A stretch of 64,000 nucleotides of DNA from Vulcanimicrobiota bacterium (lineage in GTDB: Bacteria > Vulcanimicrobiota > Vulcanimicrobiia > Vulcanimicrobiales > Vulcanimicrobiaceae), in NCBI GenBank assembly GCA_963795855.1, contig CAWCIZ010000003.1, forward strand, positions 416,001 through 480,000, given 5' to 3'. The position numbers are program-made. Positions 36,001 through 42,000 of the stretch are shown piece after piece. Position 1 is the stretch's first letter, and each line of letters starts with the position of its first letter.

Positions 36001-39000
36001 CGTCCAGGCGAGACATCTTCGCGATCGCACCCGCCTGCAAGAGGTTGCCGAAGTTGTAGATGAAGGGCGAAAACAGCGAGGCTATTCCGAGAAGCAGGCT
36101 CAAAATGTTCGCTTTGGTCTGCAAGGTCACGGCATGTCGCCGCTCGATGTGGCCGGTTTCGTGACCGATCACACCCGCCAGTTCGTCGTCGGACTGCACG
36201 AAGTCGAGCAGGCCTTCATTCACGTAGACGTATCCGCCCATCGTCGAAAACGCATTGACGTCGCTTTCGTTCAAAATTTTGATGTTGTACGGGACGTCTT
36301 TGCGGGCGGTCTCCGCCCAGAGCTTTTGCGAAATGGTCTGCACCCACTGGTTGAGCAGCGGATCCGTCTCCACGACGTTGCTCTCGACGATCTGCTGATC
36401 GTACGCGCGTCCCATCTCGATTTCGCCCTGCGTGGAAAGCGCAAGCGCAGGTGACGGGCACATGGCACCGAGCAATGAAATGATGACGGCGATCGGAATT
36501 ATGCGACGAAGCATGACGTCAATTACCTCTACCCGCGAGGGCGGGCGAATATCATAGGTTCTGGCACTCCCAGAACGTTGGGCGCGGCTCCTGCGTTACC
36601 AAGCGTGCTCGAGGACGTTAAAGGATTATTTTGTGCACGGTTTGTGGATAAGCGCAAGAACTTGTGAGAAGGCTGTGGACTTCGCAGGCCGAGCTTTCCC
36701 CCATCCGAATCGGGCGCGTTGATGGCGGTATTGCGGGGCAGGGGATTGGGTCTGGAAATCGCGCTGGGAGGATGCGATTTCGAGGGCGCCCTTGCCGAAC
36801 TGCAAAGCAAACTCGGCGAGCGTCCCGGATATTACTCCGGAACGCCGGCCACTGCCGCGCTCGGACGCACGAGCCTTTCCAACGAGCAGCTCGAGCGTTT
36901 GCGCGGCGTCTTGCAGCACCATGGCATCGCACTTGAGGCACTGTCCGGCGGTCTTGACCTTGAACCGCTCGCGACGGCGGCCGGGTTGCGATTCGCGGCG
37001 TTGGACGACGGTGGTGAAGAGCTTGCGCGGCGCCGTGCGCTGCGTCCGAAACGCGAGGTACATCTTTCGGACGCGGCGCGCTCGCTGGTTGCCGACTTCG
37101 CGGGCGCGCGCTCCGATATTGCGGATCGCCGCAAACGCGGGGAGGCAAGCGTACGCCGTGCCGCCGTCGCAACGCCCACGCCCGCCGCAGCGGTGCAGCC
37201 GGAAAGCGCGCCTGTCCCCGGCACGCTTTATCACGTCGGCACCCTGCGCGGCGGGCAGGCGCTCGCGCACGTCGGAAACATCGTCGTCATCGGCGACGTG
37301 AATCCCGGCGCGGAACTCGTCGCCGGCGGCGACATCGTCGTCTTCGGCGCGCTGCGCGGCGTCGCGCATGCGGGAGCGCAAGGCGATGCCTCGGCTCGCG
37401 TGCATGCGATCGAACTCGCGCCCACGCAGCTGCGCATCGCGGCGCTGATCGCCGCCGATGCGGGAGATCGCGGAGAAACGCCGATACACGCAGAAACGGC
37501 GTGCGTGCAAAACGATCGCATCGTCATCTATCCAAGGGAGAAAGCACCGTGAGCGCTCGCAAGATCGTTTTTACGTCCGGCAAAGGCGGCGTCGGTAAAA
37601 CGACGACGACCGTGAACGTCGGCGCGGCGCTCGCGAAGCGAGGTCATCGCGTAATCCTCGTCGACGCGGATATCGGGCTGCGCAATCTGGATTTGGTGCT
37701 CGGCTTGGAAAAGCGCATCGTCTTCGACGTGGTCGAAGTCGTCGAGGGCCGCTGTCAGTTGCGGCAAGCGCTCATTAAAGACAAGCGCTTCGAAGCGCTT
37801 TCAATTTTGCCGGCGGCGCAAACGCGCGACAAAGACGCAGTCACCGAAGAGCAGATGGCGGTGGTGATGAACGACTTGGCGTCGATGTGCGATTACGTCC
37901 TCATCGATTGCCCGGCCGGCATCGAAGCGGGATTTCGCAACGCGATCGCCGGCGCGAACGAAGCCATCGTCGTGACGACGCCGGAGGTAAGCGCGATTCG
38001 CGACGCCGACCGCGTCATCGGCAAGCTGTCCGAACGCAGCCTTCCACTGCGTTTAATCGTCAACCGCATCCGTCCGGAGATGGTGCGCAGCGGCGACATG
38101 CTCTCGGTCGAAGACGTATGCGAGATTCTTTCCGCCGAGTTGCTCGGCATCGTCCCCGACGACGAAGAGATCATCGACACGACCAACAAGGGCGAGCCGG
38201 TCGTGCTCGCGGAGGCCAGCCGTCTGCGCGTGATTTACGATAAGATCGCGCGCCGCTTGGAAGGCGAGCTCGTTCCGTTCACCAATTTGGACAGTACCGG
38301 ATTTCTCGGACGCATTTTCGGCGCGTTGAAAGCAGGCTAAGCATGCACGTCCTTCAGCAGTCCCAAGACGACGACGACGCCCGCAGCGCTGCCGCGCCGG
38401 TAAAATTGGGGCGCGCGATCGTCATCACGTCGGGCAAGGGCGGCGTCGGAAAAACGACCACCACCGCAAACCTGGGCACTGCGCTGGCCAAGCGCGGCGC
38501 AAGCGTCGTGCTGGTGGACGCGGACGTAGGCCTGCGCAATCTGGACATCGTGATGGGTCTGGAAAGCCGCGTGAAATATCACGTGCTGGACGTGCTCGAG
38601 GAGAAGGCCTCCATCGACGAGGCGCTCGTGCGAGACAAACATTCATCCAGGCTGCACTTGCTGGCAGCGGCGCAAACCCGCGAAAAGGACGAGGTCGAGA
38701 CCGAAAAGATGCGCGCGCTGGTGGAAACGCTGCGCGAACGGTTCGACTACGTGCTGATCGATTGCCCCGCGGGCATCGAGATGGGTTTCAAGAATGCGGT
38801 CGTCGGCGCGCAGGAAGCGATCGTTGTCTGCACCCCGGAAGTATCCGCCGTGCGCGACGTCGACCGCGTCATCGGGCTGCTCGGCAATGGCTTCTCGCCG
38901 CAGCTCATCATCAACCGCGTGCGTCCGCAGCTCGTGAAAAAGGGCAAGATGCTCTCGGTCGAGGACGTGAACTCGATTCTGCGGCTGCCGCTTTTGGGCG

Positions 39001-42000
39001 TCATCGCGGATGAGCCGGACGTTATCGTCTCGACCAACAAGGGCGAGCCGCTCGCACGGCGCACCGATTCCCCGACGGCCGCGGCGTACCACGCGATCGC
39101 CGCTCGTGTCGCGGGAGAAGACGTGCCGGCGCCGACGGCCGACTACAAGGAATCGTTCGTGAGCAAACTCAGTTCGTTCTTCGGGGGTCGCCGCTGACGA
39201 TGATCGACTTTTTCAATCGCCTGTTCGGGCGCCAAACCTCCGGTGCAACCGCGAAAGAACGTTTGCGGCTCGTGCTCATGTCCGATCACCTCTCGCTTGC
39301 GCCCGAGATGATCGAGGCGATGAAACGCGATTTGGTCGACGTGATTTCCAAGTACGTCGAAGTGGACCGCGACAAAATCGACGTGCATTTCGAACACGAG
39401 GAGCAGCGCCTCGCCATGCTCGCCAACATTCCGATTACCGGAGTGAACCGGAGCGGCGGCAACGGGTCGGGCACGGCGCAGAAGCGCGAGTCTCCCGCAC
39501 CAGAAATACGCCCGTCCGAGATTGCGGAAGCGCCGGCGGTCGAAACCGAGGCATCGACGAACTCGTCGAACGGCAACGGTCAGCGTCGTCGCAAGCGCCG
39601 CAAGAGCGGCCAACATCAAAGCGGCCCCGCGCAAACGGGATCGCCTGCTCCGGCCACTTAAAAGCAAACGAACGAGCGCGTGCTAGGCGTGCTCGCTTGA
39701 AAGGGACAGCCGCGGCCATCTGCCGATAACTGATGTGGAATGGCCACCATCGCACTCCCGTTCGAGACGCGGCGCTACCTGCGCAACGTCAATTGGTATT
39801 TGATCGCGTCGGCTGCGGTGCTGACGATTTTTGGTTTCGTGGCGATTCAGTCGGCGGATTTGCACTCCGCCGGAGCAGCATCGGAATACAAGAAGCAGAT
39901 CTTTTATTCGATCGTCGGCGTCGCGGTGATGTACCTGTTCTCACGGGTCGACTATCGCAATTTCCAGCAGTGGGCACCGTGGCTGTACGGTGCGAACTTG
40001 CTGATCCTCGCGTTCGTACTCAAGGGCGGACATAACGCGCTCGGCGCGCAGCGCTGGATCTCGTTGGGACCGCTCGGGACGTTTCAGCCGTCGGAGCCTG
40101 CAAAGCTCATTCTCGCAATCTTCATCGCTTGGGGATTGTGCAAGTGGCCGTTCTACCGTATCGAGGATATGGCGCGTCCCCTCCTCGCGGTTGGCGTTCC
40201 CGCGCTGCTGATCGTCAAGCAGCCCGATCTCGGAACCACGCTGGTGCTGCTCGCCATTCTTTCAACGCAGCTCTTTTTCGGTTTGGAAAAACTGCAGTAC
40301 TTCATCGCGTACGCGGTTGGGGTAGTCGGCACCGCAGCTTTTACAGTCGGCACGAACTTCATTCTCAAGCCGTTCCAAAAAGCGCGATTGCTGGTTTTCT
40401 TGAATCCCAAGGCCGATCCGCAGGGCGCCGGCTACAATCTGAACCAGTCGAAAATTGCAGTCGGAAGCGGCGAATGGTTTGGACGGGGATTGCATCACGG
40501 CACGCAGACGCAATTGAATTTCGTGCCGGAGCACTCGCGGGATTTCATCTTTACGGTCGTCGCCGAAGAGCTTGGGTTTTTGGGCGCTGTCGTGCTCGTG
40601 GTGCTTTACGTCGGCCTGCTGTTCGGCGGAATTCAAGCAATGCTCGCAGCGCGTGATAAATTCGGCTTTCTGCTGGCTGCCGGAATCGTCGGCATGTTCG
40701 CATTTCACATCATCGTCAATGTCGGGATGACGATCGGCATCATGCCGATCACCGGAATTCCCCTGCCTTTCATGTCCTACGGCGGCTCGGCGATCATCAC
40801 GAACTTTGCCGCGGTCGGCATGCTGCTGAACATCTACGCCCAGAAAGACGGCGGCATGATAGGTAACGCTTAACCGCACACCTGATAGACGGCGCCGAAT
40901 TCTAACCGGGCGATCGGTTTGAACCGAGCGTCGTTTTCGAAAACGTGGCGATGCACCGGCGTATGATAGACGACGAAACACTCGCCGTTGCGCCGCGCCG
41001 CGATCGCTTCAGCCACGCGCGTAAGGGTCCGTTCACCGAATGGATTGTAGAGATACGCGACGAGATCTCCGCGCGGCAGCCGAAATGCCGAAGCGTCCGC
41101 GCGGACGATGCGCAGGTCTTTGCACGCAATCGGCGCTTGCGTTCGACGCCACCGAACGAGGTTCGCCCGAGCCGTCTCGCAGAGAGCCGACGAGACTTCG
41201 ACGCCGATGACTTGCCGAAACCGGCGCAGGCTTGCGAGCATCACCACCCGGCCCATGCCGGCGCCGTAATCCACGAACGTGTAACCCTCGAGCGGTGCGG
41301 GCACCGCGTTCAGCAGCGCGCCGAACTGCGCGACCGGCGTTGCCTCGTAATGCGTCGCGTCGTCGATTGCCTCGCCGATGGCCTCGGGGTCGAGTTCGCC
41401 CAGAAAGAGCAGAGCTTCCGTCACGACCCCATGCTCGGCATCGAAGCGCTGGCCGCTGCGGCGACCGGAGGTGGTGCGCCGGAACGCGTCGTTCATCGTG
41501 AAGCGGTGATACCACAAGAACGTATAGGTGGGAATACCTACGAACATGAGCGTCGTGAACGTCCGCGAATCGAAATCCTGGTTCTCGCTGCTGCAGACGG
41601 GCGAGACCTCGCAAACGGCCGTAATGGCAATCGGACCCGGCGAGCAAAGCGGCCCCAAGCAGAACGAGCACCCAGGCAGCGAGCAAGTCCTCTACGTCAT
41701 CGAAGGCGAGCTGTTCGCCGAGATCGGCGATCGTTCGTTCGTCATGCGTGCGGGCGACTCGACGATCGTCCGGCGGGACGTGCCGCACCGGTTTACCAAC
41801 CGCACGCACCAGCCGGCGCTCACGTTCAACGTGTACGCGCCGCCGGCTTATTCAGGGAACTCCAGCAGGCTTGTCGCTCGGGCGCCGGGAACGTCTGGCC
41901 CGTGACCCGGCGGGGCCCGCAGTTATGGTCCGCTGAGGCCACAGTAGAGTTTTTTCCAGAGCGTCAGGGCTCGCTAGCGTACCCGCTCGAGCGCGGCCGC

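Follow-up and report, generated by a model that had tools for sequence, protein, structure and literature searches.

Tandem minD genes in a bacterial min operon, and sequence changes that suggest a two-part MinD with unlike faces

The Min systems known to us have one minD gene, and their MinD offers two equal faces. The min operon of the window (i.e. the whole stretch of 64,000 nucleotides of DNA analysed here) holds two minD genes side by side, which raises the question of what a second MinD does there. Gene coordinates agree with the survey's finding of two full-length MinDs in the order minC-minD1-minD2-minE, with rodA next, and BLASTP (137/246 identical residues) returns the identity of about 56% reported for the two copies. 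The locus comprises the following features.

36719..37552, plus strand: minC, 277 aa, with the RGGQ MinD-binding motif; its last 4 bases overlap the minD1 start
37549..38340, plus strand: minD1, GTG start, 263 aa; 57-80 surface kept, new invariant acid at 219 (E. coli numbering)
37579..37602, plus strand: MinD1 deviant Walker A box with the signature lysine; K11 and K16 in 99/99
38158..38178, plus strand: MinD1 acidic segment (E. coli 213-219); its last residue, Asp210, is position 219
38296..38337, plus strand: MinD1 C-terminal amphipathic membrane helix (predicted), aligning with the P. aeruginosa tail
38343..39197, plus strand: minD2, 284 aa, starting 2 bases past the minD1 stop
38343..38405, plus strand: N-terminal extension of MinD2, of low complexity; its length varies in the class from about 15 to 65 residues, with start codons picked mechanically; in 31/31 loci among those listed
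38574..38645, plus strand: MinD2 remodelled surface (E. coli 57-80), with Val57 to Lys, Asp59 to His and basic 71 to acid
38928..38948, plus strand: MinD2 basic segment (E. coli 186-192); its last residue, Lys202, is position 192
39153..39194, plus strand: MinD2 C-terminal amphipathic membrane helix (predicted); a helix in the MinD2 model, at low confidence
39200..39661, plus strand: minE, 153 aa, contact helix intact
39449..39658, plus strand: minE tail with an Arg/Lys cluster
39740..40873, plus strand: rodA (TIGR02210, 390.3 bits), the usual neighbour downstream

The partners of MinD are encoded beside it with their binding motifs intact: MinC scores 104.3 bits with TIGR01222 (cut-off 95.25) and contains PF03775 and PF05209, the motif R[GS]GQ being present in 93/94 MinCs of the class, and MinE scores 76.5 bits with TIGR01215 (cut-off 49.3). 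rodA is found also downstream of operons with a single minD. A promoter scan found none, and a search of the genome (86% complete) returned no further MinD, MinC or MinE, the next match being a ParA-type protein at 28-32%. The basic MinE tail of 60 residues, formerly considered part of the trait, is present, but as about 70 low-complexity residues with one basic cluster; it occurs in 89/89 MinEs of the class and in 24/24 outgroup MinEs that accompany a single-copy MinD, so that it predates the second MinD, and the idea of a co-innovation with the tandem genes was rejected, the tail being phylum-wide.

Both copies are intact MinDs, and purifying selection has preserved them as a pair from the ancestor of the class onwards. 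With the bacterial MinD model (TIGR01968, cut-off 212.9) they score 372.7 (MinD1) and 357.4 bits (MinD2), reproducing the values given before, while they fall below the cut-off of the archaeal MinD model (164.7 and 177.7 bits vs. 201.75) and of every ParA, Ssd/CpaE and Mrp/ApbC model. GKGGVGKTT and the C-termini quoted earlier are present in both sequences. In a set from which truncated frames, 1 locus with a frameshift and 4 unpublished ones were removed, K11, K16, D38, N45, D120, E126, E146 and D152 are invariant in 99 MinD1 and 98 MinD2 sequences; D40 is found in 99/99 MinD1 and 97/98 MinD2, D154 in 97/98 MinD2, and S148 and D154 are retained in both proteins. The amphipathic C-terminal helix previously noticed in both copies, for which membrane binding is predicted, has a mean hydrophobic moment of 0.51 in MinD1 (96 orthologues) and 0.49 in MinD2 (95), both lower than the 0.65 of single-copy MinD. 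The predicted model of MinD2 (pLDDT 85.6) gives fold matches with TM 0.83-0.90, the 9 best being bacterial MinD structures. Rough dN/dS values are about 0.22 for MinD1 and 0.31 for MinD2, biased upward by filtering of pairs for low dS (1717/4278 pairs).

The pair was first described as an order-wide trait. Its range is the class, where it is near fixation: at least two MinD matches (E<=1e-55) are present in 238/244 class genomes of at least 85% completeness (228/234 when the sample's 10 unpublished genomes are set aside), including 20/20 of the class's other order, which also covers at least 20 of the roughly 300 genomes outside the original order with adjacent MipZ-type genes. Two of the 244 genomes show one MinD, one having a copy cut by the contig start and the other a copy split over two contigs, and the four without MinD are also without MinE; contig edges aside, no genome retained a single copy. 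MinD1 and MinD2 are adjacent and in fixed order in 105/105 loci, with minC in 104/105 and minE in 102/105, the remainder being locus ends that cut off the gene. By contrast, the phylum's other classes have one MinD (34 genomes) or none (23), and two in 0/57. Outside the class, in a search that left out Pseudomonadota and Cyanobacteriota, tandem MinDs were found in none of 79 other loci (the query's own record being dropped), in none of the 127 MinD-bearing among 151 Bacillota genomes (2 of which have two copies, on different contigs) and in none of the 4 MinD-bearing among 81 genomes of another phylum. The literature returned nothing on tandem bacterial minD, with poor coverage of subscription papers. 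The class consists mostly of uncultured soil bacteria; rods or filaments measuring 1.5-92 µm are described for the cultured strain of the phylum (PMC9758169).

Trees were built to trace the second copy. A first, quick tree had too narrow an outgroup; in wider trees MinD1 and MinD2 each form a separate clade (100/99), MinD1 groups with the single-copy MinD of the phylum (91/76, unstarred), and MinD2 either joins a pair of long branches (92; 92/89) or falls outside. What the four long-branch MinDs have in common with MinD2 is the His59 motif alone, and all four keep Val57. A duplication is not rejected by the AU test (p=0.226 and 0.212). The term paralogs used for the two genes therefore holds insofar as they are two homologous MinDs, their origin by duplication being neither recovered nor rejected by the trees. 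In a search that scored 8000 candidates and gave 49 matches 460-2000 aa long, the one apparent natural MinD1-MinD2 fusion (P0001) was rejected as a singleton with frameshift-like garbled stretches; that no credible fusion was found is weak evidence of absence.

The two copies differ in putative partner surfaces. Of 141 conserved columns MinD2 has lost 12, and 8 of these fall in the 57-80 patch (scan permutation p=0.00015), which is conserved at 62% in MinD2 and at 87% in MinD1, while helix 7 is kept in both (92% and 89%, respectively). In the MinD2 patch His59 (98/98) and an acid at 71 (97/98; Asn in E. coli MinD) are fixed, and Val57 survives in only 1/98; the acid at 161 is lost in both copies. 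We take Val57 to be a MinC contact, and hence the patch to be the MinC surface; a literature search for a passage on Val57 in this role found none. Of the residues that contact MinE, all are kept in MinD1, which retains each partner site in its two halves. In MinD2 the 44-90/221-224 half is preserved, residues 44, 53, 90, 222 and 224 being invariant; its residue 192 is changed, and 201 or 198 is changed in part of the class. Residue 159 of MinD1 is Lys (Met in the sister order); it was dropped as proof of lost MinC binding, as Lys159 is also carried by 46/78 single-copy Bacillota-type MinDs.

A second set of differences concerns residues that meet across the dimer. In a published AlphaFold model, residues 219, 222 and 223 of one subunit and 191 and 192 of the other surround Thr14 of MinE (PMC10241942, supplementary file 7). 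Positions 192 and 219 are both acid within MinD1 in 98/99 cases and within single-copy MinD in 0/112, position 219 of MinD1 being Asp in 99/99. Across MinD1-MinD2 partners they form a basic-acid (78/96) or neutral-acid (18/96) pair on one face and an acid-neutral pair on the other (95/96); residue 192 of MinD2 is Thr in 17/18 of the sister order. Segment 213-219 has a net charge of -4.9 in MinD1 and -2.1 in single-copy MinD, segment 186-192 of +2.7 in MinD2 and -1.0 in MinD1, and the two segments sum to -4.8 in MinD1 alone, to 0.0, -1.6 and -1.9 in single-copy MinDs and to -1.1 and -2.5 on the mixed faces. These opposite charge shifts at cross-subunit neighbours recur in all three families. 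Among distant MinDs (65 full-length sequences, from 150 representatives of which 85 were dropped for being incomplete or off register), acid 219 occurs in 5, all with a non-acid 192, and acid 192 in 44 (p=0.0025, kinship ignored). Most of the listed interface residues are identical in MinD1, MinD2 and single-copy MinD. Inter-copy covariation has an effective sample of 22, and its top pairs track family splits. As kin are not independent, the pattern of differences may be one ancient event.

On this basis, with the geometry taken from the published predicted model, MinD1 and MinD2 are somewhat more likely than not to work mainly as a heterodimer. They would be co-expressed subunits of one membrane-binding ATPase for division-site placement, served by a single MinC and a single MinE; ATP would drive their pairing, which would be favoured because the acidic 213-219 helix of MinD1 meets the basic 186-192 loop of MinD2, and such ATP-driven, charge-favoured pairing appears slightly more probable than not. 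The heterodimer proposed by the survey thereby gains indirect sequence support from the charge shifts, the one-sided patch loss with helix 7 kept and the co-retention in 238/244 genomes.

As each partner site is made from both subunits, the two faces of such a dimer would be unlike. The face of MinD1 44-90 and MinD2 helix 7 would keep all conserved elements, and would be the presumptive MinC face; that of the remodelled 57-80 surface of MinD2 with helix 7 and 192-201 of MinD1 would keep the MinE contacts, and would be the presumptive MinE face. The assignment of one face to MinC and one to MinE, as formerly suggested, is helped by the MinD2 patch loss, which would blind one face, but weakened by the frequency of Lys159 in single-copy MinDs and by the family-dependent extent to which the other face has lost its MinE contacts (acid at 201 of MinD2 in 1/75, 5/5 and 12/18), so that the split is a tentative one. 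With one MinC site per dimer, open MinCD copolymers would be precluded and competition between MinC and MinE lessened; the split and these consequences, taken jointly, are likewise conceivable rather than probable. That the heterodimer is obligate, with dedicated MinC and MinE faces, no competition and no MinCD copolymers, fixed across the class, is a somewhat doubtful extension.

Alternatively, the two copies could form separate homodimers, MinD1 being the ordinary MinC carrier and MinD2 a MinC-blind form that uses the same MinE and membrane and adjusts the pattern as a MinE sink or through a second timescale. MinD1 does hold 133/141 conserved columns and the full 57-80 patch, it clusters with single-copy MinD as described above, and Arg223 could offset the acid-acid clash made by Asp219: the trio including residue 223 has a charge of -1 in a MinD1 homodimer, found also in 8/78 single-copy and 15/65 distant MinDs, and of +2 in MinD2, found also in 5/34, so that homodimers of either would be feasible. 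In a published view, moreover, interface specificity confines these ATPases to homodimers (PMC10241942). Such an arrangement leaves unexplained, however, the new Asp219, invariant in MinD1, which faces Asp192, and the opposite charge shift of MinD2 with its well-kept helix 7, and mixing would be hard to avoid because nearly all interface residues are common to both copies; we regard it as unlikely, though to be taken seriously.

It is improbable that MinD2 instead positions another cargo or binds another partner through its 57-80 patch and N-terminal extension, independently of division. The fixation of His59 and acid 71, which do not drift, the extension present in all of the listed loci, a transferred origin compatible with the trees and, as far as the accessible parts of the archaeal literature go, the positioning of motility machinery by MinD paralogs would all suit this reading. 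Against it, minD2 is flanked by minD1 and minE in all of the loci read, the operon of the window has no extra gene, the MinE-contact residues listed above are invariant, and the patch is less conserved overall, as loss predicts. Redundant copies, retained for dosage or through inertia, would account for the catalytic motifs and membrane helix kept in both, but hardly for fixed opposite differences across two orders, an identity of about 56% and 240 MinD-bearing class genomes with no single-copy loss beyond contig edges, and are very improbable. An assembly or binning artefact, which frameshifted genes elsewhere in the window might have suggested, is refuted by orthologous pairs in the 105 loci of separate genomes and by the copy-specific clades.

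The heterodimer reading can be set beside known systems. Bacterial MinCDE with homodimeric MinD (E. coli, P. aeruginosa, A. aeolicus; PDB 3Q9L, 3R9I/J, 6RIQ, 4V02/3) has the same minC-minD-minE(-rodA) order, and family scores above cut-off, catalytic motifs, membrane helix and fold are common to the MinDs described here, which differ in being two, 55% identical and fixed in tandem, with charges at the rim of the dimer that have shifted in opposite directions and one copy without the conserved 57-80 surface. In the accessible text of a review and a preprint (PMC6803595; 10.64898/2026.10.05.756812), engineered one-sided E. coli dimers, with one competent MinC side and no copolymers, function and support division; these were made in the laboratory by combining mutant with wild-type MinD, whereas the class has two natural genes under selection. 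Haloferax volcanii likewise has several MinD-family genes (MinD1-4), described in the available excerpts as having no MinC or MinE and no direct division role, whereas the two MinDs of the window fit the bacterial model. The ParA/MinD ATPases of Halothiobacillus neapolitanus (PMC10241942) are also several per cell, with a partner site composite of both subunits, but belong to distant subfamilies held to homodimerise only, whereas the present pair are true MinDs with nearly all interface residues in common.

The importance of MinCD copolymers in cells is debated, as the accessible parts of two papers indicate (PMC6771821; PMC6803595). If the heterodimer exists, their role would become directly testable, as would the way in which MinE bound to a single side sets off hydrolysis in the two subunits. 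Each face, ATP site and membrane helix of a two-gene MinD would be separately alterable, and the MinD1:MinD2 concentration ratio would offer a further parameter by which reconstituted patterns could be controlled. All Min patterning models that we know of have one MinD with two equal faces, at which MinC and MinE compete. Cfd1-Nbp35 and FtsY-Ffh, which are heteromeric SIMIBI pairs, are precedents for a homodimeric P-loop NTPase turning heteromeric, but are not pattern-forming membrane ATPases. The present pair would provide a clean case of such a change and would contradict the published restriction of such ATPases to homodimers (PMC10241942); the matching sequence changes suggest that, in this class, a symmetric MinD pair became a two-part enzyme with unlike faces.

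In the min operon of the window, the four min genes are spaced by overlaps or gaps of 2-4 bases, with rodA nearby on the same strand:

36719-37552, plus strand, minC
37549-38340, plus strand, minD1
38343-39197, plus strand, minD2
39200-39661, plus strand, minE
39740-40873, plus strand, rodA

Judged by sequence, MinD1 and MinD2 are both members of the bacterial MinD family. They score 372.7 and 357.4, respectively, with TIGR01968 (cut-off 212.9), stay below the cut-offs of all other families tested, and have bacterial MinDs as their closest relatives with solved structure; these structures are also the top matches of the predicted MinD2 model (pLDDT 85.6). 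The copies are identical at 137 of 246 residues. The survey's finding of two intact, side-by-side MinDs is borne out. No further MinD, MinC or MinE was found in the rest of the genome (86% complete). In the window (38325-38345) and its orthologues, MinD1 of this family mostly ends in K-A-G, the codons of which form a purine-rich stretch a few bases 5′ of the minD2 start, possibly a built-in ribosome site with coupled translation. Two other genes (31695-32678 and 46872-48246), one of SpoIIM type and one for an S41 protease, are each broken across two frames, which points to indels in the assembly of this genome; no such break affects the min genes. A 329-aa ORF (33471-34460, minus strand), adjoining an M48 peptidase gene that is divergent from minC, has no match in Pfam or NCBIfam.

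The tandem trait is class-wide and near fixation. The phylum was sampled through 301 genomes of at least 85% completeness, 244 from the class to which the window belongs, spread over three families in two orders, and 57 from other classes, counting MinD matches at E<=1e-55. At least two matches are found in 238/244 class genomes (228/234 leaving out 10 unpublished genomes), one in two genomes, both contig-edge effects, and none in four, which also lack MinE; the other classes have one MinD in 34 genomes and none in 23. Furthermore, minD1 precedes minD2 on one strand in 105/105 class loci (80 from the window's own family, taken from the best-scoring MinD matches, and 5/5 and 20/20 from the other two; four come from unpublished genomes); minC precedes the pair in 104 of them and minE follows it in 102, and where either gene is missing it is cut off by the locus end. 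The 34 outgroup loci hold one minD, 3′ of minC. Thus, the trait is widespread, as had been proposed, but its range is the class rather than the order, and its frequency exceeds the 73-76% first estimated. The two orders are consistent with the two-order class described in the cultured strain's paper (PMC9758169). Outside the phylum, no tandem pair was found in a small sample of 79 loci, 127 Bacillota genomes and four genomes of another phylum.

Some individual cases deserve mention. One genome (G264) has two complete minD1-minD2 pairs on separate contigs (C13 and C20), a duplication or a bin mixture. As part of the 23/57 MinD-less other-class genomes, families f5, f11 and f12 include whole families missing a MinD match (0/5, 0/5), predicted to be lineages that place division without Min. 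Four MinDs 89-95% identical to one another (L185, L188, L193, L204) come from records titled as three different phyla and may reflect mislabelling or recent min operon transfer.

MinD1 and MinD2 form separate clades (support 100/99); therefore, both were already present in the class ancestor. All class sequences derive from one event, so that the counts measure fixation rather than repeated origin. The copies may or may not be sisters: in free trees MinD1 adjoins the phylum's single-copy MinD (91/76) and MinD2 lies outside, with the copies paired in 2% of bootstrap trees, but constraining them to pair costs only 1.06 log units (AU p=0.212; 0.226 with more rows in the alignment). Mean identities are 54.7% between copies, 55% between MinD1 and outgroups and 51% between MinD2 and outgroups. 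Both copies are under purifying selection (rough dN/dS 0.22 for MinD1, 0.31 for MinD2).

In 99 MinD1 and 98 MinD2 sequences from published loci (E. coli numbering), the signature lysine, the residues of switch I and Walker B, and E126, E146, D152, R44, E53, Q90, N222 and G224 are invariant, and D40 and D154 nearly so. Both copies keep a C-terminal amphipathic tail, somewhat weaker than in single-copy MinDs (moments 0.51 and 0.49 vs 0.65), and the deviant Walker A lysine first noted in the window is present in 99/99 MinD1 and 98/98 MinD2. The MinE contact helix and the MinC R[GS]GQ motif are conserved across the class.

Of 141 columns conserved in both single-copy sets (34 and 78 sequences), MinD2 has lost 12, MinD1 five and both three, and eight of the 12 MinD2 losses fall within residues 57-80 (window-scan permutation p=0.00015). 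An aliphatic residue at 57 (MinD1 99/99, single-copy 112/112) remains in 1/98 MinD2, and a basic one at 71 (99/99 and 112/112; Asn in E. coli) in 0/98. Helix 7 is conserved alike in both copies (MinD1 89%, MinD2 92%). Val57 is presumably a MinC contact, for which no supporting passage was found in the literature searched. MinD1 Lys159 was considered as the reciprocal loss of a partner site and rejected, being found in 46/78 single-copy MinDs. These are Clostridium-type proteins (L171-L220) with Thr at 41, 59 and 148; site 159 is a MinC/MinE contact in E. coli, S148, D154 and I159 being given as contacts common to both partners in a review (PMC6803595).

An AlphaFold-based table (PMC10241942, supplementary file 7) describes the MinE site as a composite of one subunit's residues 44, 48, 51, 53, 54, 90, 219 and 221-224 and the other's 147, 150, 151, 154, 155, 191, 192, 194, 198, 201 and 202, where 219 and 192 surround one MinE residue and both lie in the dimer interface. 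MinD1 carries Asp219 (99/99) and an acid at 192 (98/99), whereas acids at both sites are found in 0/112 single-copy MinDs; among 65 distant representatives, five have an acid at 219, none with acid 192 alongside. MinD2 has Lys/Arg at 192 in 79 sequences, the others being neutral, and Lys/Arg190 in 97/98. The net charge of segment 213-219 is -4.9 in MinD1 vs about -2, and that of 186-192 is +2.7 in MinD2 vs -1.0 in MinD1; these opposite shifts are present in all three families. The summed charge of mixed faces falls within the single-copy range, and that of a face made of MinD1 alone lies on the border of this range or outside it.

That MinD1 and MinD2 work as a heterodimer is somewhat favoured. 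ATP-driven pairing would be steered by the MinD1 acid helix and the MinD2 basic loop, membrane binding would occur through two unlike helices, and the two partner faces per dimer would be unequal. The complete face (MinD1 44-90 region and MinD2 helix 7) would be the candidate MinC face; that of the remodelled MinD2 patch and MinD1 192-201, which would retain the MinE contacts, the candidate MinE face. This division of faces is a tentative proposal: the survey's split into a MinC and a MinE face agrees with the 57-80 losses, but Lys159 is not reciprocal and the MinE-side acid loss in MinD2 is uneven between families. By analogy, a one-sided dimer would be viable because, according to the review (PMC6803595) and a 2026 MinC preprint, engineered one-sided MinD dimers work in E. 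coli and, according to the former, MinE acts from one side. No natural MinD1-MinD2 fusion was found among 49 matches of 460-2000 aa from 8000 scored candidates.

Two separate homodimers, in which MinD2 would be a modulator blind to MinC, are a less probable arrangement, perhaps one chance among several; in their favour, both homodimer charge states also occur in nature once residue 223 is counted. That MinD2 serves another cargo is improbable, and redundant copies are very improbable.

The basic MinE tail first noted beside the tandem MinDs does not belong to the tandem trait, because a long tail with a basic cluster is carried by 24/24 outgroup as well as 89/89 class MinEs. In the window (39449-39658) and in outgroup loci (L032-L060, L086-L090) it is low-complexity and variable, with an Arg/Lys cluster for which anionic lipid or nucleic acid would be possible ligands.

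The locus is predicted to work like MinCDE, although its two minD genes depart from the one-gene, symmetric-dimer layout. The literature searched, with incomplete coverage, yielded archaeal paralogs and E. coli work and no tandem bacterial minD, and taxon names had no match in five other supplementary files of PMC10241942. Thus, the tandem MinD is a real, class-wide and apparently undescribed variant, and the hypothesis that MinD1 and MinD2 form a heterodimer is open to testing.
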